A stretch of DNA of 64,000 bases from a virus (taxonomy: Duplodnaviria; Heunggongvirae; Uroviricota; Caudoviricetes). Position numbers and translations under genes: made by a program. This document shows positions 7,481-49,759 of this stretch, one piece after another. The stretch spans positions 8,924-72,923 of the IMG/VR virus record IMGVR_UViG_3300028832_000119; one strand, given 5' to 3'. The first letter of the stretch is position 1; every line of letters starts with the position of its first letter. The notes under the pieces were generated by a model. The model did no database searches. It was not told the DNA's origin and saw only the letters and a program-made list of their open reading frames with translations.

Positions 7481-7656
7481 AGTGGTTACTAAGATTTCTC
7501 ATCTTTATTAATATATGACAACCACAACCTCTGATATATCCTGCTTTTGCGGAAGTTGAAACTTCATTAGTGTCAGGATTTAACCAGAGTTTGGGGTTGC
7601 AAAGACCTAAAGCAGGACTATATATTGGACATTTTTTACATATCTCTTTACGTTCT

Positions 7657-8568
7657 TCAATACTCTATTCGTGCATACTTAGCCTTTTGTTTTTCAAGTT
7701 TGTTTTGTTTAGCATAATGCTTAAGCATCTTTTCCACATCATCTTTTAAATAAGAACAGTGGTATAACGTATTCTTTCCAGAGTGGTCATAGTGATTTAA
7801 AATCAAATCTTTAATAACAAATTCTGGATTTAGTTTTTGAAGCATCCAAGCATAGGTGGATAATTGCAACTGATAATGATTAAAGTTACATTCATCTAAA
7901 TGTCCTAAAGGATACTTCATTTTATCAGCACAACGATTTGCACTATTATAAAATCCTTTTAAGTCTATTTTAGCGTTAGTCTTATGGTCTATGATATAAA
8001 TATCATTTCCATTTTTTACTATAAGGTCTATCTGTCCTGCTAGGTGTAAATCAATTTTAGGATTGTCATAATATATTAAGTATTCAGGATACACTCCATA
8101 ATCTAAGTTTAAATCAGTATAGTCTTTTTTACATACAAACTTTCCACCAATTCCAAACTTTTTTAAAGTAATATTAGAACCTGCATCATAGAATGAATGT
8201 TCTAATTGAGCATGAATCTTAGTTCCTCTTTCACAAGCAATTCTATTTGTTTCAGTCCATTCATCGAGTATATCTTGTTGAACCTTATTTAAATCCTCTT
8301 GAGTTATATTATATACTTCTAAAAAATCTTTAGGTATTTTATGATTCTTCCAAATACCTCCTTTTTCTTTCTTCCAGTCTTCTGGATTCATTATTCTTTC
8401 TAATGCTTTATAAGCACTAACGAATTCCTTATCAAATTCTTTTCCATACTTTTCAATCAAAGTAGTTACTGAAATATATTTGATAGTAGGATCATTCAAA
8501 TTTCCATAATAATGGTCTGCTTCTCTAAATCCCACAGAACCATTAATTTTATCATACTGCATTTCCAT
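7657..8568 (-). CDS. PD-(D/E)XK superfamily nuclease (RecB/Cas4/YqaJ-like exonuclease)
   Basis: 303-aa intact ORF. Motifs GTKIHAQLEH, IDLIV...IIDHKT (D...D/ExK) and QLQLSTYAWM (QxxxY) are typical of the RecB-family nuclease fold. Confidence 0.55.
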   Translation of the reverse strand: MEMQYDKINGSVGFREADHYYGNLNDPTIKYISVTTLIEKYGKEFDKEFVSAYKALERIMNPEDWKKEKGGIWKNHKIPKDFLEVYNITQEDLNKVQQDILDEWTETNRIACERGTKIHAQLEHSFYDAGSNITLKKFGIGGKFVCKKDYTDLNLDYGVYPEYLIYYDNPKIDLHLAGQIDLIVKNGNDIYIIDHKTNAKIDLKGFYNSANRCADKMKYPLGHLDECNFNHYQLQLSTYAWMLQKLNPEFVIKDLILNHYDHSGKNTLYHCSYLKDDVEKMLKHYAKQNKLEKQKAKYARIEY

Positions 8569-8587
8569 TAAACATATAAATTTTTCA

Positions 8588-9199
8588 TTACTTAGAATTA
8601 TCTTTTATATACTATAAAATTCCTTCAACGTGAAGTCTTACAATAGCATGAAAGCCTTCATCACTGAGTAAATAATCTACATCTTTTTTATTATCCTAAA
8701 AAAAGTTTTCCGTTAGTACCGCAGGACAATTAGTATTTTTAAGAACATATAAATGAGCTTCTTTATCTGGATCTCCATCCGAAAAATCAGTTCTCATTTT
8801 AGCGTCCTTTAGATTTGTTTTTGCTGCATTATATAAACAGGTTGCAAGCTCATCAGCTTTAGTTTTACCAACTGATGTAAAAACTTCCCAACCTGTTCCC
8901 TCATGCCATTTACCGTCAGAACCGGAGGCATTTACATGTATAGAAACATAAATACAGTTTTTGTACTGTTTTACTAATTCATTAACAACTTTACATCTTA
9001 AACATAATTCTTTTGATTGAGATACTCCTAAGTCATCATCTTCTACATCAATAAAGACTTTATATCCCATATCTTTAAGAATCGCTGCAGCAGCTTTACA
9101 AACTTCTCTAGAATATTTATATTCTCTAAATTTTCCATCTGGAGAACCTTTTCCTAAGATGCTTTTCTAATGAGCTGTGCCAAAAACAACTGTAATCAT
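8588..9199 (-). CDS. N-acetylmuramoyl-L-alanine amidase (Amidase_3) endolysin; 3 in-frame TAG
   Basis: Core ORF 8696..9070 has SIHVNA and NCPAVLTENFF motifs. Reading through TAG 8696 gives the canonical Amidase_3 C-terminus (DNKKDVDYLLSDEGFHAIVRLHVEGIL-TAG-YIKDNSK) ending at TAA 8588. N-terminus MITVVFGTAH-TAG-KSILGKGSPDGK starts at ATG 9197-9199, which overlaps the upstream TGA (ATGA). Confidence 0.65.
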
Positions 9200-11574: not shown

Positions 11575-11994
11575 TCAGTTCTCATAATACAATGTCATTA
11601 AATATTCTTCTGTTATTTCTTTAATTCCAGTTTTAGTAGTTGGGTTCCATATATGATTCTTAAAGAGTTCTCTCATTGTAGGACGAGGTTCATCTTTTTT
11701 AATAAAGCATACTCTTCTAGTATCATCTATGTTCGAACGAACTATTACTTTTGTTACATCTTTCATATAATCCTCTAGCTCATTGCTAGGGGATTTTTCT
11801 TTTTTAATAGGATTATCTATAATTTCTATATCATCTATAGATAATTTCATCCTTTTTAATTTCTTCTCCAGATTTGGAGTAGTGATTATTGTTCCTTTAT
11901 ATTTAAATGTTGTTTCCATAGTTGTCCCACTAGGATTCGAACCCAGGCTAAAGGATTTAGAGTCCCCTGTACTGACCATTATACTATAGGACAA
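11575..11994 (-). CDS. hypothetical protein (139 aa)
   Basis: Intact ORF, standard code. Confidence 0.45.
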   Translation of the reverse strand: MSYSIMVSTGDSKSFSLGSNPSGTTMETTFKYKGTIITTPNLEKKLKRMKLSIDDIEIIDNPIKKEKSPSNELEDYMKDVTKVIVRSNIDDTRRVCFIKKDEPRPTMRELFKNHIWNPTTKTGIKEITEEYLMTLYYEN

Positions 11995-19231: not shown

Positions 19232-19855
19232 CTGTTTAATTTGTGCGATGATAAAGAAATGTTTAATTCAAAGAACTTTGTTGTGATAATAAGGTTCTTT
19301 TCTTAAGGCTGTAAGTATCCATAATATATAAACTCGAAAATTCACTGATGATTACTGGGGATTAATGCCCAGATTCACTGTAAGTGTTATAGTGCACTAT
19401 GAGTGGGGATAAACGAGTATAAAGAAATCCCGAAATTGTTAAAGTTTGTTTGCTCTCCACATCAATATAGGTGTGGAGAGTTTTTATTAACTTACAATCT
19501 GAAATTACATCAAGATAAAGATGACACCAAAGTCTTTATGTGGATAGGGAAACAGGCGGTGCTGTCCTTGATAGAAAAAGATGTGAGACAGCTAGGGAGT
19601 CTATAAAATCCTCACTGATGAGACCTAGACGAAAGTAGGATACTCCAGTGAATAATAGTAGCTGGAGTTTTTTTAATGACTAACTTAATAATAATAATAA
19701 TGAAAACAAGAGAAAAAGAAATTAATGACTTTCTTAAAAGTCGTCGGGGTCTTGCATACCTTGGTATGAAGTATCCCAAACTCTCAGTACAGGATGCAAT
19801 CAATGAGTATAAACTTGCAGCATCTAAGTAATAACCTATATAAACAAACAGCAAT

Positions 19856-25914: not shown

Positions 25915-27747
25915 ATGATACAAGTAGAATTTAATAAGAAGAATGAAAACCAGTTTTATGGTTTGAGAAACTGTCTGAAGTTGCTTCAAGCCTCAACTGA
26001 TGGTTCAATTAGTATGTATCTAGTAGATGATGCATGGAATGAAGTTAAGAACTCTAAGGAAAATAGAGAACTTTTCTATTCATTGCTGTTCTCTATTGGC
26101 GACATTACTAATAGACAACACAATATTTTCAAGGGTAAGAAGAAAGATAGTGGTGGTGCTGCTAATCGTGAATTCTTCTATGAAATTGTTCATTGGCTTT
26201 GGAAGAACAACAAGGAGCAGTTCATTAAGTTCCTGAATGCCCAACTCTTTAATGAGTATGCTTGTTTCGATGTTCTGTTAAAGAACAGAGTACAAACTAA
26301 GGGTAATAAAGTACTTCATGTGTTTAAGGCATTTGAAGACAAAGAGTATCGTAAGGCTCTGTTAGATTATGTATATGCTGTTGTAAATGGAACTAATCCA
26401 TTCAATAAGCTTCTGATTGCTAAGTTCCTGACTATTCCTCGTACTTCTAAGCGTAAGGGACACAAGAAGATGTTGCCTGAAACTAAGGAGATTATGAAGG
26501 AGAAGTTGAGTTTCTTGACTGATCTTTCTAAGATGATGGGCTGGGAAACAGAATACTTGAAGGGTTATCGTGAGTGGCGTAAGCAGTACAATGGTGACCT
26601 GGAAAGTGTGATGTTTACTACTGGAAAGATTAATGATTTCACTAAGGATGAATTCATTGATTGGTTCGGCAAACTTCCAGCACAAGCTCGTTTCCGTGTA
26701 AAGAATAGAATTCTCTATTCTGAGCAGGAGATAGAACATCCTAATGGAGGTAAGTGCACTGTATATAAGTGGGCTAATTTCCAGCCTTGGATTAAAGAGT
26801 GGGAAACTTATAAGGAACAGAAGCAGCAAGAGCAACGTAATCTTGAGGAAAAGGTTCGTCAAGGTCAAGCTTCTGAGGAAGATAAGGTTAAGCTCCAGAA
26901 GGTTAAGAAGGAGGCCAAGGTAACAGTTGGTGCTACTAACTTTAAGGAGATTTATGATCAGATTGGTACTGGACGACTGGATAAGTTGAAGGTAGAATCT
27001 TTCATGAATAAGGTTAACCTGCCTTATAACTCTTTGGTAATTATTGATAGCTCTGGTTCTATGTCTGGCAAGCCATTCCTATATGCAGCATTTATTGCAG
27101 CAGTATGTTTGTGCAAGAATCCAGATGATGACGGTCGTAACCTGATTGGTATGTTTGATACAAACTCTAAGTGGTTTGCACATATTGATTCACAGGCTTA
27201 TGCTAAGAATTCCATCTTGAGAACTAAGGTTGCTAAGACTAAGGCTCAGCCATTGGTTGATCCTACTAAGAGTTTCTTGGATAACTATGCAGCTATTGCT
27301 AATTTCCTGAGAGATAAGTTCCATGGAGGTTCAACACGTATTGACTCTATTGCTGAAGGTCTGAAGGTAGCTTGTGATGAAGCTCCAGAGATTCTGGATG
27401 CTCTTCGTAACTATCCTGTATGGACTATCATCAGTGATGGTGAGTTCAATAGTATGTACTCTCCAGAAGCTTCAATGGCTGACTTCTTCCGTAAGTGTGA
27501 GAAGTACTTTGGATTCCGTCCTTATGTAGTTCTTATGGACATTTGTGTTGGTTGGAGAAGTCCAGAATCTCTCAAGGCTGACAGATTTAGTGGAATTGAC
27601 AACATGTTGTACATTCCTTCTAATCCTGCTATGATTGAGATGTTCTTGACTAACTTCAAGGATATGGAGACATTTGATGTATATACTCCTCTGTTGAGTA
27701 TGTATCGTTCAAATCGTTATCAACTCGTGCGTGAGAATACTCTTTGA
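25915..27747 (+). CDS. von Willebrand factor A (MIDAS) domain protein, 610 aa; possible TROVE/Ro60-like architecture (unverified)
   Basis: Complete MIDAS: VIIDSSGSMSG (DxSxS) ... T ... TIISDGE. The ~370-aa N-terminal helical region before the vWA domain matches Ro60/Rsr domain order. Host-like codon usage. Confidence 0.55.
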   Translation: MIQVEFNKKNENQFYGLRNCLKLLQASTDGSISMYLVDDAWNEVKNSKENRELFYSLLFSIGDITNRQHNIFKGKKKDSGGAANREFFYEIVHWLWKNNKEQFIKFLNAQLFNEYACFDVLLKNRVQTKGNKVLHVFKAFEDKEYRKALLDYVYAVVNGTNPFNKLLIAKFLTIPRTSKRKGHKKMLPETKEIMKEKLSFLTDLSKMMGWETEYLKGYREWRKQYNGDLESVMFTTGKINDFTKDEFIDWFGKLPAQARFRVKNRILYSEQEIEHPNGGKCTVYKWANFQPWIKEWETYKEQKQQEQRNLEEKVRQGQASEEDKVKLQKVKKEAKVTVGATNFKEIYDQIGTGRLDKLKVESFMNKVNLPYNSLVIIDSSGSMSGKPFLYAAFIAAVCLCKNPDDDGRNLIGMFDTNSKWFAHIDSQAYAKNSILRTKVAKTKAQPLVDPTKSFLDNYAAIANFLRDKFHGGSTRIDSIAEGLKVACDEAPEILDALRNYPVWTIISDGEFNSMYSPEASMADFFRKCEKYFGFRPYVVLMDICVGWRSPESLKADRFSGIDNMLYIPSNPAMIEMFLTNFKDMETFDVYTPLLSMYRSNRYQLVRENTL

Positions 27748-28217: not shown

Positions 28218-28252
28218 TGTTGTCATAGTTAGGATACTTACAAAATGGTAAA

Positions 28253-28329
28253 TATATATTAGTTCATTAGGTTAGAACGTTAGCTTGTCATGCTGAAAGT
28301 AGGAGGTTCAATCCCTTCATATATAACCA
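28253..28329 (+). tRNA. tRNA-Asp (GTC), CCA encoded; acceptor stem all A/T
   Basis: TATATAT-TA-GTTC-ATTAGGTTA-GAAC-G-TTAGC-TTGTCAT-GCTGA-AAGTA-GGAGG-TTCAATC-CCTTC-ATATATA-A-CCA. The TTACTTACAA motif ends ~10 nt upstream. Confidence 0.55.
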
Positions 28330-28393
28330 TAGTATCCTTTATTTTGACTGCTGTTTGTTTTTAATATAAATTTTAGGTACTTACAATCACATA

Positions 28394-28466
28394 ATTACAT
28401 TAGCTCATTAGGTAGAGCATCCGATTTTTAATCAGAGTGTAGCTGGTTCGATTCCAGTATGTAGAG
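28394..28466 (+). tRNA. tRNA-Lys (TTT)
   Basis: D-arm GCTC-ATTAGGTA-GAGC, anticodon loop TTTTTAA, T-arm GCTGG-TTCGATT-CCAGT. The TACTTACAA motif ends 7 nt upstream. Confidence 0.5.
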
Positions 28467-28602
28467 AAATTAGTACCTATTTTTAAATAGTACATAGTTA
28501 TTTTCATTTTTATAATGAATTTGTCGTTTCAATAGAAACAGTGGGTTTAGGCAGTAAAGTTAGGATAGGAATAAGAGCACCCCTAACCTATGTACTATAA
28601 TT

Positions 28603-28995: not shown

Positions 28996-29109
28996 GGCGG
29001 AGTAGTTAAACGGAAAATGAGTATCTGTTTAGTTACTTACAATATCGTATTTATTAACGCAAATTTGTCACATTTGAAAATAGGGGTTCGACTCCCCTCT
29101 CCGCCGCCA
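28996..29109 (+). tRNA. tRNA-Asp-like (GTC) with ~40-nt insertion in the D-loop; CCA encoded
   Basis: GGCGGAG...CTCCGCC-G-CCA acceptor, D-stem GTTA/TAAC enclosing AACGG + insertion (contains TTACTTACAA), canonical CAAAT-TTGTCAC-ATTTG anticodon arm, AGGGG-TTCGACT-CCCCT T-arm. Confidence 0.45.
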
Positions 29110-29172
29110 AGGTACAGAGAACTTGGGTACTGAGTCAAGGGTGCTGAGACTTTAAATAATGCACCATATCAA

Positions 29173-29297
29173 GGGGGAGTAGCTAAGTTAGAGAATTTTC
29201 TAGTAACTTAAGTTACTTACAATCTAATAATAAAAAATTACAGGTAAAGCATTTGTGTGAAAACAAAAGTACGTTGGTTCGATTCCAACCTCCCCCA
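29173..29297 (+). tRNA. tRNA with ~45-nt D-loop insertion (palindrome AGTAACTTAAGTTACT + TACAA); anticodon arm atypical (possible GAA in a 6-nt loop)
   Basis: GGGGGAG/CTCCCCC acceptor, GCTA D-stem, GTTGG-TTCGATT-CCAAC T-arm. TTTGT-GTGAAA-ACAAA stem-loop. Confidence 0.35.
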
Positions 29298-29457
29298 CAC
29301 TTGTCCACGGGTCCGTCTAGTAATAGACAATGGGACATTGTAGTATCACACCGCCTCTGATGCTACACGCAACCTAATAGTGTGTGTTCTATTTCAGCCT
29401 ATCTTGAAATATAAATTATTAGGAACAATAGGTGACAACTCGGAAAGACGAGTAACT

Positions 29458-29581
29458 GCCCAGGTAACTTAGTAATAAATTTTTTAGTAGCTAAAGTTAC
29501 TTACAATATCATAATTAAATTTTCGGTAAAAGTATTTGTCTGTTAAACAAAGTATCGCTGGTTCGAGTCCAGCCCTGGGCG
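29458..29581 (+). tRNA. tRNA-Asn (GTT) with ~45-nt D-loop insertion carrying AGTAGCTAAAGTTACTTACAA
   Basis: GCCCAGG/CCTGGGC acceptor, D-stem ACTT/AAGT around the insertion, TTTGT-CTGTTAA-ACAAA anticodon arm, GCTGG-TTCGAGT-CCAGC T-arm. Confidence 0.45.
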
Positions 29582-29694
29582 CTTTTTGATTGTTTGATTA
29601 TTTATTGTTGTGAAACAAAGAATGATTGTTTTAGGTTAGTCAAATTTTAAGGTTAGTAATTTAGTCCAGAAAGCGTTCTGGACATTTTTAAAAT

Positions 29695-29819
29695 GGGGAA
29701 GTAGTGAAATGGTAATTTCTAGTAGCTACTTTGTTACTTACAATATCATAATATAAATTCAAGGTAAACACGCAAATTTTAGGTATTTGAAACTCCGGGT
29801 TCGAGTCCCGGCTTCCCCA
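29695..29819 (+). tRNA. tRNA with D-loop insertion; anticodon loop TTTAGGT (UAG anticodon, Leu-type loop) but a short variable arm
   Basis: GGGGAAG/CTTCCCC acceptor, CAAAT-TTTAGGT-ATTTG anticodon arm, CCGGG-TTCGAGT-CCCGG T-arm. Insertion contains GTTACTTACAA. Confidence 0.4.
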
Positions 29820-30002: not shown

Positions 30003-30079
30003 GAAGGGTTCGTCCAGTGGTAAGACTGCAGTTATGGTTATGTCAGCTGTAGAACAGGGGTTCGATTCCTCTACCCTTC
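30003..30079 (+). tRNA. tRNA-like gene with enlarged (15-nt) anticodon-region loop; isotype undetermined
   Basis: GAAGGGT/ACCCTTC acceptor, GGGG-TTCGATT-CCTCT T-arm, TGCAG...CTGTA stem around TTATGGTTATGTCAG. Confidence 0.3.
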
Positions 30080-30186
30080 TCAATTATCTATGGAACTTGA
30101 CGAAATAGGGGTCGCGCAGGAAGCAGCTTATAAATCATGACCCGCTGCTAAGATCAATAAAGTAGATAATTTGTCCGACGGGACAG

Positions 30187-30261: not shown

Positions 30262-30300
30262 TTACTTACAAAAACAATTATCGTTGGTTCGATTCCTCTA
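30262..30300 (+). other. TTACTTACAA motif followed by a duplicated tRNA 3' half (copy of 30059-30086)
   Basis: ggttcgattcctctacccttc is repeated verbatim downstream of the motif. No 5' half present. Confidence 0.4.
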
Positions 30301-30439
30301 CCCTTCACTATGAAAAATTTAGATGTAAATACAATGTATCAACATGATACAGAAATAAGTCCTGCTTTAAGATATTGTCAACCAGGATTATTAATTAATT
30401 TAAAAAAGTTTTTAAAATTATTAAACAAAGATTAACAAT

Positions 30440-30971: not shown

Positions 30972-33044
30972 ATGACATTAACAACTATTATTGTTGCAGG
31001 AGTAATTGTTCTCCTAGTGATTTTAACAATTATCGGGCTTTTGTCTCGTTATCGTAGATGTCCCAGTGATAAACTGTTAGTTGTATTTGGTCGAAATAAG
31101 ACCAAAACAGTTGAGGAAACCTACAAAGATGTAGATGGTAAAGAGAAAACTCGTAAAGTAACTCTTCATCTCCCTGCTAAGATTATTCAAGGTGGTGGTA
31201 CATTTGTATGGCCTATTGTCCAGGATTATCGTGAGATGTCTCTCAGACCTATTCTTCTTAGTAAGAAGATTGAGGGTGTATCATCTCAGATGATTAAGAC
31301 CTTTGTATCAATTGAATTGTCAGTAGCTATTGGTAATGAAGAAGAGCTTCGTATGAATGCAGCTTCTCGTTTCTTGAGTGCTAATGAGAGTGAAATTAAG
31401 AACTCTATTGAGGCTATCTATGTAGGTGAGGTAAGATCTCTGATGGCTCGTATGACCATTGAGGAACTGAACTCTGATAGAGAGGCATTCTTGACTGATG
31501 CTAAGAGAAATATTGAAATTGAGCTGCAAAAGGTTGGTTTCGTTATTCTTAACATTAACATTTCAGACCTGGATGATGATGCAGATTATATCACCAACTT
31601 AGGTCAGAAAGCTGCTACTCAGGCTAAGGCAACAGCTGAGGCTGATATTGCTGAGCAGGAGAAGATTGGAGAGGTTAAGATTGCGAATACTCGTAAGGAG
31701 AAATCTATCCAGTTAGCAGAAGCACAGAAAGAAGAGGAAATCCAGGTAGCTGCACAGAATAAAGATCGAGAGACTACTGTTGCTCAAACTAAACAGGAAC
31801 AAGAAGTTCGTGTTGCAGAGATTGAGAAAGAAAAGCAGACTAAGATTGCTGATACTCAGAAGGCTAAGGAAGTACAGCTTGCTGAGATTAAGAAGGATAA
31901 GGAATCTGGTATTGCTAGTCAGAAGGCTCTTGAGATTGCTGCTGTGGCAGAGGCTGATGCAAATGCTGAATCAAGTAAGGCTGAAGCTGAAGCACGTAAG
32001 GTTGCTGCAGTTGCTGCTCAGAAAGCAAAGGCAGAGTCTTCTAAGGCAGAATCTGAGTCTAATCAGCGTAAGGCTGTAGCTGCTGCACAGGCAGATGCAG
32101 AGGCAACTGAGAATGAGAAGGAAGCTCTTAAGCAGACTCGTATTGCTCAAGCTAATCAGAAGAAGGAAGCTGATATTATCCAGGCTACTCAGGAGAAGGA
32201 AGCTAAACAGGCTGAGTTCGAATCACAAAAGCAGATTCGTAAGGCTAAGGCTGACCAGGATGCTGGTGTAGCAGAACAGAATGCAAAGATTCTCGTAGCC
32301 CAGGCTCGTGCAAAGGCTGGTCAAGCAGAAGCTGATGCTGATAAGACTGTAAAGGTTGCTAAGATTGAAGCTGACATGAAGGCAGCTAAGACCCAACAGG
32401 AACGTCAGTTAGAGGTAAATGAGGCTGAGGCATTGGCAGTTGAAGCTAAGTTGAATGCTGAGCAGGTTGTACCTGCTGAGCAGGCTAAGAGAAAGACCAT
32501 CATCGAAGCAGAAGCTATTAAGGAACAGGCTATTCTTCAGGCAGAAGCGGAAAAGCAACGTATTCTTAAGAAGGCTGAAGCTGATGCAGAACAGGTTCGT
32601 CTAAAGATGAATGCTGAAGCTGAAGGTATTAAGAATAAGAAGCTTGCTGAGGCTGAAGGTCAGAAGGCTCTGTTGTTTGCAGAAGCAGAGGCTCTCCAGA
32701 AGAGAGAGATGGCTCCTGCACTGGCTCTGCAGAAGATGGTAGAATCATTCGGCGGTAACCCTGATCTTCTTGTTCAGTACAAGATGGTTGATCAGTATAA
32801 GGGCATTGCTGAGGCTCAGGCTCATGTACTTGAACATATTCAGCTTGGTAATGTTACTGTTTATGGTGACTCCAACACTGGTGCTCAAGTTGCTAAGAGT
32901 TTCGTTGAGAACTTCTCACCTGCTCTGGATATTATCAACAAAGGATTTGGTAAGCAATTTGGACAGCTCTTTAATAAAGAGAAGAAAGAAGAGTTGCCAG
33001 CTCCTGAAGAGAAAAAGGATGAAACTTTTGAGGAAGTAAAGTAA
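30972..33044 (+). CDS. flotillin-like SPFH/band-7 protein with long Ala/Glu-rich coiled-coil repeats (690 aa)
   Basis: N-terminal membrane anchor, SPFH-like region, then an extended EA-repeat coiled coil (KAEAEARKVAAVAAQKAKAE...), as in bacterial FloT/YqiK. GC-richer, host-like codon usage. Confidence 0.6.
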   Translation: MTLTTIIVAGVIVLLVILTIIGLLSRYRRCPSDKLLVVFGRNKTKTVEETYKDVDGKEKTRKVTLHLPAKIIQGGGTFVWPIVQDYREMSLRPILLSKKIEGVSSQMIKTFVSIELSVAIGNEEELRMNAASRFLSANESEIKNSIEAIYVGEVRSLMARMTIEELNSDREAFLTDAKRNIEIELQKVGFVILNINISDLDDDADYITNLGQKAATQAKATAEADIAEQEKIGEVKIANTRKEKSIQLAEAQKEEEIQVAAQNKDRETTVAQTKQEQEVRVAEIEKEKQTKIADTQKAKEVQLAEIKKDKESGIASQKALEIAAVAEADANAESSKAEAEARKVAAVAAQKAKAESSKAESESNQRKAVAAAQADAEATENEKEALKQTRIAQANQKKEADIIQATQEKEAKQAEFESQKQIRKAKADQDAGVAEQNAKILVAQARAKAGQAEADADKTVKVAKIEADMKAAKTQQERQLEVNEAEALAVEAKLNAEQVVPAEQAKRKTIIEAEAIKEQAILQAEAEKQRILKKAEADAEQVRLKMNAEAEGIKNKKLAEAEGQKALLFAEAEALQKREMAPALALQKMVESFGGNPDLLVQYKMVDQYKGIAEAQAHVLEHIQLGNVTVYGDSNTGAQVAKSFVENFSPALDIINKGFGKQFGQLFNKEKKEELPAPEEKKDETFEEVK

Positions 33045-33195
33045 ACTTCTTTTCTGTGAATAAAAATAGGATACTTACAATAATATATGCATTACATTGA
33101 TAGTTCGAATCTATCTTTTGGCTCCATGCCTAAATCGCTCAATGGTAGAGCATCAAATTTGTAATTTGACGTAAATTATTAGTATCCTTTTATGT

Positions 33196-33302
33196 GAGGT
33201 CTTAGTTTTTAAGGGGTAGAATGGCTATGCTGTGGTAAAGAGCTTCGGGTTAGAAAGTGTTCCCATATCATAGAAGGTGTTGGTTCAAATCCAACAGACC
33301 TC
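33196..33302 (+). tRNA. tRNA-like gene (~107 nt) with internal insertion; isotype undetermined
   Basis: GAGGTCT/AGACCTC acceptor 107 nt apart, GTTGG-TTCAAAT-CCAAC T-arm. Confidence 0.3.
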
Positions 33303-33308
33303 CCGGCT

Positions 33309-33379
33309 AAGAGAGTGTAAGTTCGATTCTTACAATATAGGTTCGAGTCCTATGCAGGTTCGAATCCTGCAACTCTCTT
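33309..33379 (+). ncRNA. acceptor-like stem enclosing three tandem T-arm hairpins
   Basis: GAGAGTG - TAAG-TTCGATT-CTTA - TAGG-TTCGAGT-CCTA - CAGG-TTCGAAT-CCTG - CAACTCTC. Confidence 0.35.
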
Positions 33380-33386
33380 AAATCTC

Positions 33387-33465
33387 TCTATGGGCAAATT
33401 GGTAAAGTCGTTTGGTTCAAACCCAAAAGTTGTGTAGGTTCGAATCCTACTAGGGAGACTATAAG
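33387..33465 (+). tRNA. tRNA-like gene; anticodon-position hairpin TTTGG-TTCAAAC-CCAAA (CAA, Leu-like?)
   Basis: TCTCTAT/TAGGGAGA ends, GTAGG-TTCGAAT-CCTAC T-arm, D-arm irregular. Confidence 0.3.
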
Positions 33466-33485
33466 TTACTTACAATATTAAATGG

Positions 33486-33530
33486 GCACATTAAATCACG
33501 GGTTCGATTCCCGTAAGAACCGCCATTTTT
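33486..33530 (+). other. motif + tRNA 3' half (T-arm ACGGG-TTCGATT-CCCGT plus AAGAACC-G-CC) with no matching 5' half nearby
   Basis: Preceded by AAGTTACTTACAA. No GGTTCTT partner strand upstream. Confidence 0.3.
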
Positions 33531-33632
33531 GGTTTTTTAGTCTAGTGGTTAGGACAAATGTTTAAGTAACTTTTTTATGAACTTCTTGTAATAAATCCAT
33601 AATTTCAAAGATTAGAGATACTTACAATCTCA

Positions 33633-33690
33633 TTCGTATGAATGAATTGAGGGTTCGAATCCCTTCTTTGCTTATGCAATGTGGCGGAAT
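33633..33690 (+). ncRNA. small cloverleaf-like tRNA mimic with the ACTTACA motif as the loop of the D-arm-position hairpin
   Basis: TCAAAGA-TTA-[GAGAT-ACTTACA-ATCTC]-[CATTC-GTAT-GAATG]-AATT-[GAGGG-TTCGAAT-CCCTT]-CTTTGC. Confidence 0.3.
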
Positions 33691-33756
33691 GGTAAACGCG
33701 AAACACTGAAGATGTTTTTTCGAAACAAATAAATACAAAGTATCTCTACATGGGAG

Positions 33757-33870
33757 GTAGTGTAGTGGTAACACGCAGTAGTTTTTTAGTATTATAATTA
33801 ATACTTACAAATTCTATTTAACGTTGCTTATGGTGCCTGTATCCCAGTGTTCGATTCCTGGCCTCCTGAC
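33757..33870 (+). tRNA. tRNA-like gene with canonical D-arm and ~50-nt insertion (hairpin AGTATT/AATACT + TACAA)
   Basis: GGGAGG...CCTCC acceptor, GTGT-AGTGGTA-ACAC D-arm, TTCGATT T-loop. Confidence 0.3.
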
Positions 33871-33884
33871 TAATTTTTATTATT

Positions 33885-34612: not shown

Positions 34613-34743
34613 CATTTTTTAACTGTAACATCTAAAAAATAAAAAATAAATTTAATGTCTAAGATACTTACAAATTTTCGTAAAATATTGTGTAAAAATT
34701 AATAATAAATGTTGGTGAAATTCTGGAAATAAGTATCTTAAAG

Positions 34744-34826
34744 TGCCTCAATATTCGAATTGGTATAGAAGGCAGACTTAAAATCTGCTCCGGTTAACGG
34801 GTCGGGGTTCGAGTCCCCGTTGAGGT
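34744..34826 (+). tRNA. tRNA-Leu (TAA), type II
   Basis: GCCTCAA/TTGAGGT acceptor, GCAGA-CTTAAAA-TCTGC anticodon arm, long variable arm CCGGTTAACGGG, CGGGG-TTCGAGT-CCCCG T-arm. Confidence 0.55.
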
Positions 34827-34966
34827 ACAAAACACGTGTTAAAGAGGATGACTTATTGTAATAAAGGACAATCTGTGGTAGAATAACAATATTACAATAT
34901 GGTGAATAAATTCGTTGGGATCTTTTAATGGAATAATCTGTCTAACCAACAGCACCCTCAAAACAT

Positions 34967-36727: not shown

Positions 36728-37393
36728 CCTATCTTTAATGCATAGATATAAAACAGCATTAGTGGTACTATTCCTTCTCAAAGTTAATAGCGTAAGTTAA
36801 TGTCTTTTACGATAGTAAAGCATCGATTTTCTCCTTAAAGTTAGAAAGTGAGACGTTTGGTTTTGTTAGTTTTACAGCGTGAAGTAAAAACTAATAGGAT
36901 TATCGGAACGATAGGTCGCTCCTATGGGTAGATAATTAACAATAATGGAGTTTGGCAGATTCCATTATTAATTGGGCCTTACAGGATTAGACGGCTGTTG
37001 AAGGTAATAAGAACAAGCAAAGACGGATGGAAAGACATCAAATAATTAAATGGCAATAAAGCTAAAACTGTAACCATCGGTAGCAGAAGCTTCCGTATGG
37101 CTGCCTAAGTTGGTAACTTACTTAGTCGTCAGAAAGTTACAATAATAGAAATTATTAAACTTAAGTCATTAAACAAGGGAGCCTTGGTCCTTCTAATTGA
37201 CTGATTAGTAAATTATAGGCTGGTGGAACTGATGACTATCCAGTCATCCCCTTGGAGAAGAATAACTCCTTAAAAAATTGAAAAGCTTGTATAATTCTTA
37301 TAGAATAAGCAGTTCGGACGAGGTTTCGACTACCTCAAGGTCCACTTTATTACGTTATTTATTAACGAGATACTTTACAAAATCATATTTTAT

Positions 37394-37467
37394 GAATTTT
37401 TAGCTCATTTGGATAGAGCAATATCCTGCTAAGATGTGTGTAGTCGGTTCGATTCCGGCAAAATTTA
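37394..37467 (+). tRNA. tRNA with anticodon GCT but a short variable arm (type I)
   Basis: GAATTTT/AAAATTT acceptor, GCTC-ATTTGGATA-GAGC D-arm, ATATC-CTGCTAA-GATGT anticodon arm, GTCGG-TTCGATT-CCGGC T-arm. The GATACTTTACAA motif ends 9 nt upstream. Confidence 0.45.
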
Positions 37468-37485
37468 TTTTTAGTATCTCCTTAT

Positions 37486-37559
37486 AGTTCCATGGTGTAG
37501 TGGTCAAACATGTCACTCTTACAAAGTGAAGATCCTCAGTTCAAATCTGAGTGGAACTA
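37486..37559 (+). tRNA. tRNA-Val (TAC)
   Basis: AGTTCCA/TGGAACT acceptor, GTGT-AGTGGTCAA-ACAT D-arm, TCACT-CTTACAA-AGTGA anticodon arm, CTCAG-TTCAAAT-CTGAG T-arm. Its anticodon loop CTTACAA resembles the array-wide ACTTACAA motif. Confidence 0.55.
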
Positions 37560-48990: not shown

Positions 48991-49063
48991 GCTCGTATAG
49001 TTCAATTGGCAGAACGGTGGTCCTCAAAACCAAATGTTGAGAGTTCGATCCTCTCTATGAGCA
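48991..49063 (+). tRNA. tRNA-Trp-like with apparent UCA anticodon (candidate opal/UGA-reading suppressor); C at position 33
   Basis: GCTCGTA/TATGAGC acceptor, GTTC-AATTGGCA-GAAC D-arm, TGGT-CCTCAAA-ACCA anticodon stem-loop (anticodon TCA at 49024-49026), ATGTT variable loop, GAGAG-TTCGATC-CTCTC T-arm. The body closely parallels the CCA-anticodon tRNA-Trp at 51545 and E. coli tRNA-Trp, except loop CCTCAAA versus CTCCAAA. Confidence 0.4.
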
Positions 49064-49171
49064 CTAAATAATAAATTGTTAATTTTTATTAAATTCATAA
49101 GTTTGAGTTTGAATTTTCAAACTTAAAAATATATTTATAGTACGAAGATTAAAACCCCTTCGTCTATTAAT

Positions 49172-49759
49172 ATGTCAAAATGGGAATCTGAAAAAGAAGA
49201 ATTAGAAAGACTTATAAATGTAGAAAAAGTTAGTTATGAAGAAATAGGTAGAAGATATGGTTGTTCTGGAACTAATATTAAAAAAGTTGCAAAACAATTA
49301 GGAATAGAACTTCCCCAACGTAGAAAAATAAACCCTTGTGAAACTTTTGATAGAAGTTCTAGAAAAATAATATATTATTGTTTAAATTGTGGAAAAGAAT
49401 TAAATCAAGGTTCTAGTAGTTCTCATAGATTTTGTGATAGTAAATGTCATAATGAATATAAATATAAAGAATTTATAGAAAAATGGAAAAATGGAGAAGA
49501 AAATGGAATTAGAGGAGCTTCTGCAATTTCTATGTATATAAAAAGATATTTATTTAAAAAATTTCATAATAGATGTCAAAAATGTGGTTGGGGAGAGGAA
49601 AATCCCTATTCTCATACTATCCCTTTAGAAATTCATCATATTGATGGAGATTGTACTAACAATAAAGAAGAAAATCTTCAATTGCTTTGTCCAAATTGCC
49701 ATTCATTAACTGATAATTTTAGGTCTTTAAATAAAAATACTACTAGATTTAGATATTAA
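49172..49759 (+). CDS. HNH endonuclease (standard code) inside the tRNA array
   Basis: EIHHIDGDCTNNKEENLQLLCPNCHS HNH motif. Zinc-finger Cys pairs. Confidence 0.6.
   Translation: MSKWESEKEELERLINVEKVSYEEIGRRYGCSGTNIKKVAKQLGIELPQRRKINPCETFDRSSRKIIYYCLNCGKELNQGSSSSHRFCDSKCHNEYKYKEFIEKWKNGEENGIRGASAISMYIKRYLFKKFHNRCQKCGWGEENPYSHTIPLEIHHIDGDCTNNKEENLQLLCPNCHSLTDNFRSLNKNTTRFRY

Follow-up and report, generated by a model that had tools for sequence, protein, structure and literature searches.

Three described architectures come closest to the elements reported here: YrlA-type Y RNAs, two-piece tmRNAs, and the permuted tRNA genes of algae and archaea. YrlA-type Y RNAs that have a 7-bp acceptor stem are cut by RNase P and gain CCA in vivo, which leaves them in two pieces, and the sequence GNCGAAN0-1G near the YrlA 5′ end is a putative contact for Ro60 (Chen et al. 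2014, PMC4201824). Circularly permuted tRNA genes of algae and archaea depend on a bulge-helix-bulge (BHB) motif and on the splicing endonuclease of archaea and eukaryotes for processing, and their circular intermediates have been demonstrated (Soma 2014, PMC3978253). Within the literature that can be searched, descriptions of permuted and split tRNA genes are confined to archaea and a few algae, and those of tRNA-mimicking Y RNAs to sites next to Ro60 genes.

We analyzed a 64,000-nucleotide stretch (the window) of a Caudoviricetes genome, IMG/VR record IMGVR_UViG_3300028832_000119. An initial annotation had proposed that the window encodes structured non-tRNA elements built from tRNA parts, and this core idea is borne out by the tract at 33068-33869, which holds three conserved permuted units and one interrupted gene. 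The explanation that we favor, with moderate confidence, is that these are permuted and interrupted tRNA-derived small-RNA genes organized by a shared helix-TACAAT module, with a triple T-arm element as a one-off derivative. The plus-strand array would be transcribed as tRNA-derived small-RNA genes, and the products are predicted to be tRNA-shaped particles handled by tRNA enzymes.

The module consists of a helix of 8-10 bp whose 5′ strand, RRGNTACT, runs directly into TACAAT(AT) (TACAATAT) and whose 3′ strand, AGTANCYY, usually has a T-run next to it. The hexamer TACAAT or TACAAA is nearly invariant. The sequence ACTTACA is part of this clade-specific module and is present in 25 copies compared to 10.9 expected, with plus-strand copies clustering at 28.2-30.3 kb and 33.07-34.67 kb. 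A 12-nt extended motif occurs at 10 sites in the window (1.4 expected), all on the plus strand. Three topologies are seen, in which the module brackets ordinary tRNAs, brackets permuted units, or interrupts normal-order tRNAs as a local hairpin. Ordinary tRNAs in normal order are bracketed at 28231-28338 (Asp) and 28374-28479 (Lys) in a sister tract, and at 37367-37480 (GAGATACT...AGTATCTC, with the variant motif TTTACAAAA), all on the plus strand.

Across the window and its relatives there are 113 distinct bracket units with a modal helix length of 8 bp, and 138 of 146 brackets lie on the gene strand. The bracket helix is a continuous, perfectly paired duplex of 8-10 bp with U·U flanks, and its outer pairs covary (AGGATACT/AGTATCCT, AAGTTACT/AGTAACTT, AAGCTACT/AGTAGCTT, and GAGATACT/AGTATCTC). 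A transposon with terminal inverted repeats was rejected, because the outer helix positions covary rather than being fixed and no target duplication was seen; known ribozymes and group I introns were rejected for lack of any Rfam match. AT-rich filler is all that is enclosed in 56 of the 113 bracket units, for example at 34660-34740 (plus strand), which ends 4 nt before tRNA-Leu(UAA) at 34745-34828, and these filler-only brackets are unexplained by a tRNA-mimic model. In bacterial genomes the bracket pattern gave nine matches, equal to the chance expectation, with the T-loop in none of them; the 14-mer AAGATACTTACAAT is too unspecific to serve as a search pattern.

Unit 3 (33613-33748, plus strand, 136 nt) is a bracketed, circularly permuted tRNA-like gene. 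Its parts are arranged in the order TAGAGATACT, TACAAT, a variable hairpin, the T-arm, an acceptor stem closed by TTAT, the D-arm, an anticodon arm (GAA), a tail, and AGTATCTCTA, which completes a terminal helix of 10 bp. This fold pairs 99.5% of cells across the homologues, none of 500 shuffles did as well, and covariation reaches 0.485 compared to at most 0.085 in slid controls; the single sequence folds with a z of -3.29. The unit contains the stretch for which a four-stem "mini-cloverleaf" had been proposed at 33633-33690. That fold does not hold, given that the interval is indistinguishable from shuffles (z 0.02) and that 33610-33690 folds marginally (z -1.95) without producing the claimed structure. 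The proposed 7-nt loop presenting ACTTACA, closed by GAGAT/ATCTC, fares no better. The hairpin GAGAT-ACTTACA-ATCTC maps to 33615-33631 (plus strand), outside 33633-33690, and is mutually exclusive with the bracket helix. It was rejected because 71% of cells are paired over 14 homologues, shuffled columns are as good in 391 of 500 trials, and covariation is 0.026. Instead, ACTTACA adjoins a conserved long-range helix, and no conserved loop presents it. Thus, the sequence is indeed conserved and covarying, but in a different, permuted tRNA fold, and the mini-cloverleaf is the 5′ third of Unit 3.

The acceptor stem of Unit 3 has 6 bp with a conserved U·U mismatch, a tetraloop, and no CCA, and the unit probably stays closed at this end. 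Its anticodon is hypervariable and differs among orthologues. The true fold is a tRNA body whose acceptor end is closed and whose termini have moved to the variable/anticodon side, where they are clamped by the module helix. The tRNA-like domain of YrlA-type Y RNAs has this connectivity.

Unit 1 (33068-33188, plus strand) is a bracketed, circularly permuted tRNA-Thr(UGU)-like gene. It begins with AGGATACT, TACAAT, the T-arm, and the 3′ acceptor strand with TCCA, and continues after a 1-nt spacer with the 5′ acceptor strand, the D-arm, an anticodon arm (loop TTTGTAA), AGTATCCT, and a T-run. An alignment of 12 homologues contains 30 pairs, 13 of them compensatory, and the single-sequence fold has a z of -3.86. 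The UGU anticodon is present in 11 of the 12 homologues, and G1-C72/C2-G71 are kept. The invariant arm had no match in 185,579 bacterial and archaeal species genomes, so it was not copied from a sequenced host tRNA.

Unit 2 (33463-33572, plus strand) is likewise bracketed and permuted, and an anticodon arm was found in none of its eight homologues. Its order is AAGTTACT, TACAAT, a variable hairpin, the T-arm, the 3′ acceptor strand, and GCCA, then TTTT, the 5′ acceptor strand, the D-arm, AGTAACTT, and a T-run. The eight homologues provide eight compensatory pairs (the bracket reads AAGCTACT/AGTAGCTT in the syntenic relative L197), and the single-sequence fold has a z of -3.05. In Units 1 and 2 alike, the acceptor stem has 7 bp, the spacer is U-rich, and NCCA is encoded; most Unit 1 homologues and five of the eight for Unit 2 carry NCCA after the 3′ acceptor strand. 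Based on these features, RNase P may open the two units, and 3′ trimming to CCA would then leave two pieces that the acceptor and module helices keep together as one tRNA-like RNA. Such termini and processing, and the stability of the RNAs, are predictions from the sequence.

All three units share one connectivity. RNAalifold independently recovers the bracket, the T-arm, the closed acceptor stem, the D-arm, and the anticodon arm; compensatory pairs number 13 apiece in two unit families and 8 in the third. In Units 1 and 3, the 3′ half precedes the 5′ half, and the rejoined halves make a recognizable tRNA: given un-permuted sequences from four genomes, ARAGORN reports Thr(UGU) for Unit 1 and a tRNA for Unit 3 every time. 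Its calls for Unit 2 are inconsistent.

The permuted and interrupted array is confined to a single clade of uncultivated large phages, and a BLAST search of the tract against GenBank phages returned no match. A protein search with the flotillin gene gave distant matches only. Units 1 to 3 and the interrupted genes are kept across phages whose flanking protein is 55-75% identical, with dozens of compensatory changes and almost no broken pairs. Turnover is nonetheless rapid, as L207, the closest flotillin relative, has Unit 3 alone and L152 has none of the units. This turnover, together with lone T-arm fragments such as that at 30264-30305 and the singleton status of the triple T-arm element, is what would be expected if the tract were a functionless graveyard of decaying tRNA pseudogenes and recombination debris. 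The retention of the units and interrupted genes over such protein divergence, accompanied by so many compensatory changes, is not, and we regard this reading as highly improbable. For Units 1 to 3 it was rejected on the basis of the conserved fold, the compensatory changes, and the near absence of broken pairs.

Within the tract, the gene at 33751-33869 (plus strand) is tRNA-like but interrupted, scoring 25.9 bits against the Rfam tRNA model with a 58-nt insert. Its layout is a 5′ acceptor strand, a D-arm, the insert in the anticodon region, a T-arm, and a 3′ acceptor strand. The insert carries an AGTATTA..TAATACT hairpin and TACAAA, and orthologues keep the acceptor pairing across it. Four further interrupted tRNA genes carry the module in the D-loop (28996-29106, 29173-29297, 29458-29581, and 29695-29819, all plus strand) and fold with z values of -2.5 to -4.2. 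Deleting the insert from interrupted genes restores canonical D-loops, for example GTT-AAACGGAA-AAC and TA+GGTAAA. The acceptor halves covary across the insert, and the insertion site within the D-loop varies between families. Among 43 distinct insert hairpins, variable positions show G·U 40 times and A·C 6 times, compared to a background of ~1.2:1. This excess indicates that in the interrupted genes the helix of the module is an RNA helix. Bracket units proper show G·U 10 times and A·C 5 times, which is a weak test.

One reading of these arrangements is that the disrupted genes mature into decoding tRNAs. An endonuclease of the phage or its host would cut at the module and a ligase would join the ends, such that the module is excised as an intron, bracketed permuted precursors are circularized, and RNase P and 3′ trimming open the circle. 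Viruses of bacteria would then have their own version of the BHB pathway of archaea and algae. The use of one module in three topologies is the pattern by which archaeal and algal introns, split genes, and permuted genes are connected (PMC3978253), but the module is an unbroken 8-bp duplex without BHB geometry, and the window contains no endonuclease or ligase candidate. Un-permuted units are called as tRNAs, and Unit 1 offers a UGU anticodon loop, G1-C72/C2-G71, an encoded CCA, and a spacer as short as that in Thermofilum pendens (1 nt). However, Unit 2 lacks an anticodon arm in all eight homologues, and in Unit 3 the anticodon is hypervariable and the acceptor stem, of 6 bp, has a mismatch, a tetraloop, and no CCA. 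The canonical D-loops obtained by insert deletion, the covariation of acceptor halves across the insert, and the RNA nature of the module helix all fit maturation, whereas the shifting position of the D-loop insert between families and the 56 of 113 brackets without a tRNA inside do not. On balance, we consider maturation rather unlikely. We are similarly doubtful of the broader proposal that the clade runs a protein-dependent tRNA cut-and-rejoin system without group I introns or BHB motifs, in which the helix and UACAAU would be the recognition element and intron-containing, bracketed, and permuted genes would all be matured to working tRNAs.

The hexamer also resembles a promoter element, given that TACAAT matches TATAAT at five of six positions. 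It is possible, though we hold this only tentatively, that the module is transcriptional punctuation, with TACAAT as the -10 element of a phage-specific promoter that has no -35 element, and the downstream complement and T-run as a terminator or insulator. In that case, each half of a permuted or interrupted tRNA would be transcribed separately from its own promoter, and the split halves would assemble in trans. The motif lies 5-11 nt upstream of tRNA 5′ ends, and the strong strand bias and the T-run after the 3′ strand agree with such a role. In four genomes, it also occurs without a bracket 15-23 nt upstream of the ATG of a conserved 610-aa ORF (no match in a PDB sequence search), directly after a terminator-like hairpin at 19450-19490. 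A -10-like hexamer and a motif before a protein gene without a bracket suggest a possible DNA-level role for all or part of the module. As expected for a sigma-70 element, the motif is upstream of the transcript at the 610-aa ORF, but in the interrupted genes it is placed next to an RNA helix and between covarying acceptor halves that must pair. Initiation after TACAAT would leave the 5′ strand of the helix out of the RNA, yet this strand covaries with its partner and, in the insert hairpins, tolerates G·U but not A·C. Moreover, a conserved -35 element or TG extension is lacking for ACTTACAAT, since no positions are conserved 15-23 nt upstream and CT rather than TG precedes the hexamer, and intrinsic termination would be poorly served by a stem of 8 bp whose loop spans 50-130 nt. 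Punctuation at the DNA level is compatible with the RNA-level reading that we favor.

The remaining elements of the tract are built from similar parts. A long tRNA-like element, called X (33196-33302, plus strand), has an acceptor-like GAGGTC/GACCTC stem, a T-arm (GTTGG-TTCAAAT-CCAAC), and a conserved internal core. It has homologues in L002 (7849-7970, 76%) and in L197, where the stem covaries to GAGGTT/AACCTC; its single-sequence fold is not significant. T-loop motifs are enriched in the window (46 compared to 3.2 expected), with nine copies within 33103-33857. Lone T-arm fragments are also present, as at 30264-30305. In addition, the window contains ~30 canonical tRNAs. The loop CTTACAA noted earlier in the anticodon arm of tRNA-Val(UAC) is confirmed.

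The triple T-arm element (33309-33379, plus strand) is a 71-nt cloverleaf in a tRNA-sized slot with spacers of 4-6 nt. As initially annotated, a stem encloses three perfect T-arm hairpins, and this description is fully supported: the minimum free energy structure is exactly this fold (-23.9 kcal/mol, z -3.95, equaled by 1 of 200 shuffles). The 8-bp closing stem pairs 33309-33316 with 33372-33379 (AAGAGAGU/ACUCUCUU), and the plus-strand arms are GUAAG-UUCGAUU-CUUAC (33317-33333), AUAGG-UUCGAGU-CCUAU (33337-33353), and GCAGG-UUCGAAU-CCUGC (33354-33370). An acceptor-like stem is thus set on a T-arm, with one unpaired A between the closing stem and the third arm. The element has no G18G19 D-loop and no distinct anticodon loop, as all three loops read UUCGANU. 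Its best overlap with the Rfam tRNA model RF00005 is 22.7 bits (33297-33361, using different arms), below the gathering threshold of 29 bits, and an ARAGORN "tRNA-Ser(CGA)" at 33289-33361 takes one of its T-loops for an anticodon loop.

No homologue of this element was found in ~80 related loci, in IMG/VR pattern scans, or in the syntenic relative L197, and it thus fails the test of conservation and covariation in related phages that the annotation itself had set. An exact 28-mer had no match in IMG/VR, and a structural pattern of three close T-loops had 18 matches, of which 17 are tandem or coding repeats and 1 is a duplicated tRNA 3′ end. In the relatives L006 and L158, ordinary tRNAs have T-arms identical to arms 2 and 3. 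A copy of the 12-nt extended module motif with one mismatch (TTCTTACAATAT, 11 of 12 positions) lies at 33327-33338 (plus strand), in the 3′ strand of arm 1 and the linker, which suggests descent from an interrupted gene. The most likely origin of the element is recent recombination between copies of the abundant T-arm repeats. We read it as a genome-specific compact derivative of the interrupted tRNA class, composed of an acceptor stem, a hairpin whose 3′ strand is the motif copy, and two hairpins like ordinary tRNA T-arms.

The annotation had suggested that such elements may be decoys or binding platforms for enzymes or defense systems that recognize T-arms or anticodon loops. In this view, the triple T-arm element would act as a sponge for T-arm-recognizing proteins, be it TrmA, TruB, RNase P, CCA-adding enzyme, EF-Tu, or a toxin that cleaves T-loops. 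Its three perfect stems of 5 bp, its consensus T-loops, the 8-bp closing stem, and the z of -3.95 suit this role, and such order is more than expected of a random recombination product, which counts against a mere by-product. Because it is tRNA-sized and takes the place of a tRNA in a dense array, the element would be transcribed along with the array and processed, and tRNA mimics that engage tRNA enzymes have precedent among Y RNAs (PMC4201824). The adjacent class I tRNA(CAA) (33384-33459, plus strand, 56.6 bits), which is specific to the window and absent from L197, likewise has a T-arm-like anticodon arm, TTTGG-TTCAAAC-CCAAA. Against these points, the lack of any homologue in the loci and scans above gives no sign of selection, the arms are ordinary T-arms of related tRNAs, the motif copy points to descent from an interrupted gene, and no partner protein was identified. 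A decoy role is therefore quite improbable. We conclude that the triple T-arm element is real yet one-off, with no function indicated by anything found.

These data indicate that a phage clade retains three or more families of permuted tRNA-like genes, along with several interrupted families, all of which use one shared RNA module. If the genes are matured to tRNAs, then disrupted tRNA genes evolved independently in bacteria-infecting viruses, and a processing activity is yet to be discovered. If the units remain permuted, they would be a new, Ro60-independent class of viral tRNA mimics. A cut-and-rejoin system, if true, would be the first split or permuted tRNA gene system beyond archaea and eukaryotes, and it could shield the phage tRNA supply from host anticodon nucleases or permit rapid anticodon switching. 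That orthologue anticodons vary on conserved bodies suggests that these genes take part in the contest over the host tRNA pool. In addition, because standard tRNA finders miscall or miss permuted and interrupted genes, metagenomic inventories of phage tRNAs are probably incomplete.

Among described systems, the YrlA-type Y RNAs (RF02553) have an end-to-end stem that encloses a T-arm, a closed acceptor-like stem, and a D-arm in the same order as in our units, with conserved sequence on the 5′ strand, and the family is also phage-encoded (PMC4201824). The arm order of the Rfam YrlA consensus is that of the permuted units. However, Unit 1 scores a weak 22.9 bits against a gathering score of 69, Units 2 and 3 have no match, and the 5′-strand motif is TACTTACAAT; a regular-expression search found GNCGAAN0-1G in neither Units 1 to 3 nor the triple T-arm element. 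YrlA is encoded within ~4 kb of Ro60/Rsr on the same strand, whereas Pfam and PHROGs searches of the 28 window ORFs, which include all neighbors of the units, several of them unknowns, found no Ro60 (TROVE), RNA ligase, splicing endonuclease, or CCA-adding enzyme. Units 1 and 3 also differ in having a full anticodon arm, and the module also brackets normal tRNAs and interrupts others. Membership in the YrlA family thus fails on score, motif, and gene neighborhood.

The permuted tRNA genes of Cyanidioschyzon merolae, green algae, and Thermofilum pendens resemble the units in that a short intervening sequence separates an upstream 3′ part from a downstream 5′ part, in that leader and trailer are complementary, and in that their genomes also have tRNA genes with introns; an encoded CCA can occur, and the spacer can be as short as 1 nt (PMC3978253). 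The units differ in their unbroken 8-bp duplex, in the absence of an anticodon arm or a conserved anticodon from some of them, in a host that is presumably bacterial because the phage carries a tmRNA, and in the lack of an endonuclease or ligase among the 28 ORFs. Since the leader and trailer form no bulge-helix-bulge, the units are not BHB-type permuted genes.

The tmRNA of the window (36974-37347) is of the ordinary one-piece type. Keiler, Shapiro and Williams reportedly described in 2000 a bacterial precedent for permutation, a two-piece tmRNA from a circularly permuted ssrA, where the 5′ acceptor strand comes after the 3′ strand that carries CCA and excision of the linking loop is said to give a functional two-piece RNA. 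The two-piece form predicted for Units 1 and 2 may be likened to this RNA and to Mycobacterium smegmatis YrlA. Pseudoknots and an mRNA-like tag reading frame set tmRNA apart from the units, and it lacks the helix-TACAAT module. The interrupted genes resemble the split and intron-containing tRNA genes of archaea (Nanoarchaeum equitans and others) and bacterial tRNA genes with group I introns in being interrupted at the D-loop or anticodon with complementary halves, but they have no BHB, their inserts of 40-60 nt are far too small for a group I intron, and they match no Rfam intron or ribozyme. Finally, the window shares dense, co-oriented arrays with short spacers with the ordinary tRNA clusters of T4, T5, and jumbo phages. 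The genes of such clusters are canonical, in normal order, and uninterrupted, as are those of the window's own cluster at 49-56 kb, where the module is absent, in contrast to the permuted and interrupted genes of the tract.

The stretch at 33633–33690, initially annotated as a four-stem mini-cloverleaf with the ACTTACA motif in a loop closed by GAGAT/ATCTC, was mis-drawn. It is part of a circularly permuted tRNA-like gene, unit 3 (33613–33748, + strand), and it led to a set of rearranged tRNA-like genes, conserved and covarying, that are organized around an RNA module specific to the clade. The GAGAT-ACTTACA-ATCTC hairpin lies at 33615–33631, outside the annotated interval, which itself is no better folded than shuffled sequences (z 0.02). 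The hairpin was rejected as a conserved structure (71% of cells paired, 391 of 500 shuffles as good, covariation 0.026). However, the stretch is conserved and covarying in its permuted form, for which 99.5% of cells are paired, none of 500 shuffles is as good, and covariation reaches 0.485, compared to at most 0.085 with slid partners.

Unit 3 opens with TAGAGATACT and TACAAT, continues through a variable hairpin, T-arm, TTAT-closed acceptor stem, D-arm, and anticodon arm, and finishes with a tail and AGTATCTCTA. Identical connectivity is found in units 1 (33068–33188) and 2 (33463–33572), in which NCCA and a short T-rich spacer separate the 3′ acceptor strand from the 5′ acceptor strand that comes after it; unit 2 lacks an anticodon arm. 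After in silico exchange of the halves, ARAGORN reports tRNA-Thr(UGU) for unit 1 and a tRNA with differing anticodons for unit 3, each in four of four genomes. RNAalifold consensus structures from 14 unit-3, 12 unit-1, and 8 unit-2 homologues include the bracket (the module helix enclosing a unit), T-arm, closed acceptor stem, D-arm, and anticodon arm, with 13, 13, and 8 double-compensatory pairs, respectively, and almost no broken pairs. Single-sequence folds of all three units agree with the permuted structure (z −3.05 to −3.86). The units are probably expressed as discrete RNAs, with units 1 and 2 presumably opened by RNase P, and these rearranged RNAs likely act as tRNA mimics or supplements. 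Among unit-3 orthologues, a conserved body carries the anticodon GAA, GCA, CUA, AGA, AAU, CAA, or CCA. Similarly, a bracketed “ATTACAT” tRNA (28394–28466; 8519–8592 and 7632–7704 in the related loci L001 and L002) presents UUU, GAU, or UUC on a conserved body.

The window is phage-like, AT-rich (32.5% G+C), and tRNA-rich, with 34 tRNA calls by ARAGORN and 35 Rfam matches that include a one-piece tmRNA (36974–37347; 67 bits). Only 26 ORFs of at least 150 aa are present in the 64 kb. Suppressor-type tRNAs with anticodons CUA and UCA are located at 11921–11993 (− strand) and 48991–49064, and an ORF with a weak HNH endonuclease match (49172–49759) has tRNA genes of the second cluster on either side. 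The permuted units lie, together with a triple T-arm element, in a non-coding tract (33045–33884) flanked by an SPFH/flotillin-like gene (30972–33044; Pfam Band_7) and a 164-aa ORF. No DNA relative was found among GenBank phages. Scans of IMG/VR and metagenomes anchored on the flotillin gene yielded ~75 related loci (54–98% protein identity) on contigs of up to 376 kb from few sample series.

ACTTACA is enriched in the window, with 25 copies where 10.9 would be expected. The copies on the + strand cluster in two non-coding tracts and align to an extended motif, TACTTACAAT(AT). For the 8 nt that end in TACT, a perfect complement lies 50–130 nt downstream, usually with a T-run next. In total, 146 such bracket units (113 distinct) were found in the window and its relatives, 138 of them on the gene strand. 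The distribution of helix lengths has a sharp maximum at 8 bp (consensus RRGNTACT/AGTANCYY), T·T is what most often lies immediately outside, and positions 1, 2, and 4 undergo compensatory changes between units. The brackets contain a normal-order tRNA (29), members of the unit 1 and unit 3 families (28), or other sequence (56), mostly AT-rich filler that often stops a few nucleotides before a tRNA. These units, about half of the total (34660–34740 and 55 in related loci), enclose nothing but 47–130 nt of AT-rich sequence devoid of tRNA features, and often end 4–12 nt upstream of a tRNA. Brackets are absent from tRNAs of the 49–56 kb cluster. Across 185,579 species genomes of bacteria and archaea, matches to the pattern are no more frequent than chance predicts and contain no tRNA; the module is restricted to this phage clade. 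As initially annotated, the tRNA-Val(UAC) anticodon loop is CTTACAA (CUUACAA, 37519–37525), in the same sense as the module motif, and the near-invariant anticodon loop of unit 1, UUUGUAA (33149–33155), is complementary to the module’s UUACAA. These matches may be coincidental.

Normal-order tRNA genes in the sister tract (28996–29819) and at 33751–33869 are interrupted in the D-loop or anticodon region by a 40–60-nt insert, which comprises a local hairpin with a 3′ strand ending in TACT, then TACAAT and a spacer rich in A and T. In orthologues, the acceptor halves on either side of the insert pair perfectly (GGGGAAG/CTTCCCC, GGGGGAG/CTCCCCC, GGGCGAG/CTCGCCC, GGCGAGG/CCTCGCC), and because compensatory changes maintain this pairing, these genes are predicted to give functional RNAs. 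Given the correct ends, their folds comprise an acceptor stem, a long extra hairpin, an anticodon arm, and a T-arm (z −2.5 to −4.2). Variable positions of 43 distinct insert hairpins hold 74 Watson–Crick, 40 G·U, and only 6 A·C combinations against a background G·U:A·C ratio of ~1.2, which indicates that the helix forms in + strand RNA and that the strand directly before TACAAT is transcribed. In the family of 29695–29819, a conserved body carries the anticodon UAG, UUG, or UGG. At 28996–29106, 29173–29297, and 29458–29581, the strand that precedes TACT-TACAAT is complementary to, and pairs with, the tRNA’s own positions ~6–16 (for example, AGUAGUUAAAC with GUUUAGUUACU), in competition with the D-stem. 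This pairing suggests an origin of the module 3′ strand (AGTANCYY) in the 5′ region of a tRNA.

Since the strand upstream of TACAAT covaries with its partner, G·U is favored over A·C, the motif resides in RNAs whose two halves must pair, and neither a −35 element nor a TG extension is conserved, the module helix is an RNA feature. The same observations argue against a purely DNA-level role for the module. TACAAT may also serve as a promoter: the hexamer is promoter-like, the motif stands 5–11 nt upstream of tRNA 5′ ends, a T-run follows the helix 3′ strand, and in four genomes a conserved 610-aa ORF has the motif, without a bracket, 15–23 nt upstream of its ATG. This ORF (25915–27747), directly upstream of the sister tract, has no match in Pfam, PHROG, or PDB.

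Two further tRNA-like sequences were noted. The conserved X element (~105 nt; 33196–33302, with counterparts at 7849–7970 in L002 and ~1590–1760 in the related locus L197) combines a T-arm and a conserved core, CTTCGGGTTAGAAAGTGTTCCC, with an acceptor-like stem in which GAGGTC/GACCTC covaries to GAGGTT/AACCTC; it was not called a tRNA by any tool applied. At 30264–30305, a lone motif, T-arm, and 3′ acceptor strand duplicate the 3′ end of an odd tRNA-like gene (30003–30081).

The initial annotation of three tandem T-arms within an acceptor-like stem (33309–33379, + strand) is confirmed, but the element is a singleton. Its MFE fold (−23.9 kcal/mol; z −3.95 versus shuffles) places three perfect 5-bp hairpins inside an 8-bp closing stem; their loops are UUCGAUU, UUCGAGU, and UUCGAAU. 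T-loop motifs are ~14-fold enriched in the window, with nine in tract 33045–33884. Together with the adjacent class-I tRNA(CAA), the element forms ~150 nt missing from L197, where the order is otherwise identical (flotillin, unit 1, X element, unit 2, unit 3, interrupted tRNA, ORF), and found in no other related locus; IMG/VR, scanned with both exact and structural patterns, gave nothing comparable to the element. Only its single arms have matches, all in T-arms of relatives’ ordinary tRNAs: arm 3 is identical to that of the tRNA preceding unit 2 in one related locus (L158), and arm 2 to one in another (L006). In arm 1, which has the same layout as the interrupted genes’ extra hairpin, the 3′ strand and linker form a one-mismatch copy of the 12-nt module motif (10 sites in the window versus 1.4 expected). 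The element is probably a compact form that descended recently from the interrupted class via recombination among T-arm repeats. Being tRNA-sized (71 nt) with 4–6-nt spacers to its neighbors, it would share their transcript and be cut out as a tRNA is. Given its orderliness, a role as a functional decoy is conceivable but unlikely. The tRNA(CAA) (33384–33459; 56.6 bits), likewise specific to this genome, lacks the long variable arm expected of a Leu tRNA, and its anticodon arm (UUUGG-UUCAAAC-CCAAA) is T-arm-like.

The permuted units share their arm order with the Rfam consensus of YrlA RNAs, which are tRNA mimics also found in phages and of which, in vivo, a variant with a 7-bp acceptor is cleaved by RNase P and acquires CCA (PMC4201824). 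However, unit 1 matches YrlA over its full length at only 22.9 bits (threshold 69), the YrlA motif GNCGAAN0-1G is absent from the units, and no gene for the YrlA partner Ro60 was found among the 28 ORFs of the window. Gene order is also shared with the permuted tRNA genes of algae and Thermofilum, although the BHB motif that, with circular intermediates, defines those genes (PMC3978253) is absent here. As in the window, the algal and Thermofilum genes have an encoded CCA and a very short spacer, and co-occur with intron-bearing genes. In the searchable literature, bacteriophages are nowhere reported to have permuted or split tRNA genes. Two-piece tmRNA (cited in PMC3978253) sets a precedent in bacteria for the arrangement of NCCA, spacer, and 5′ acceptor strand.
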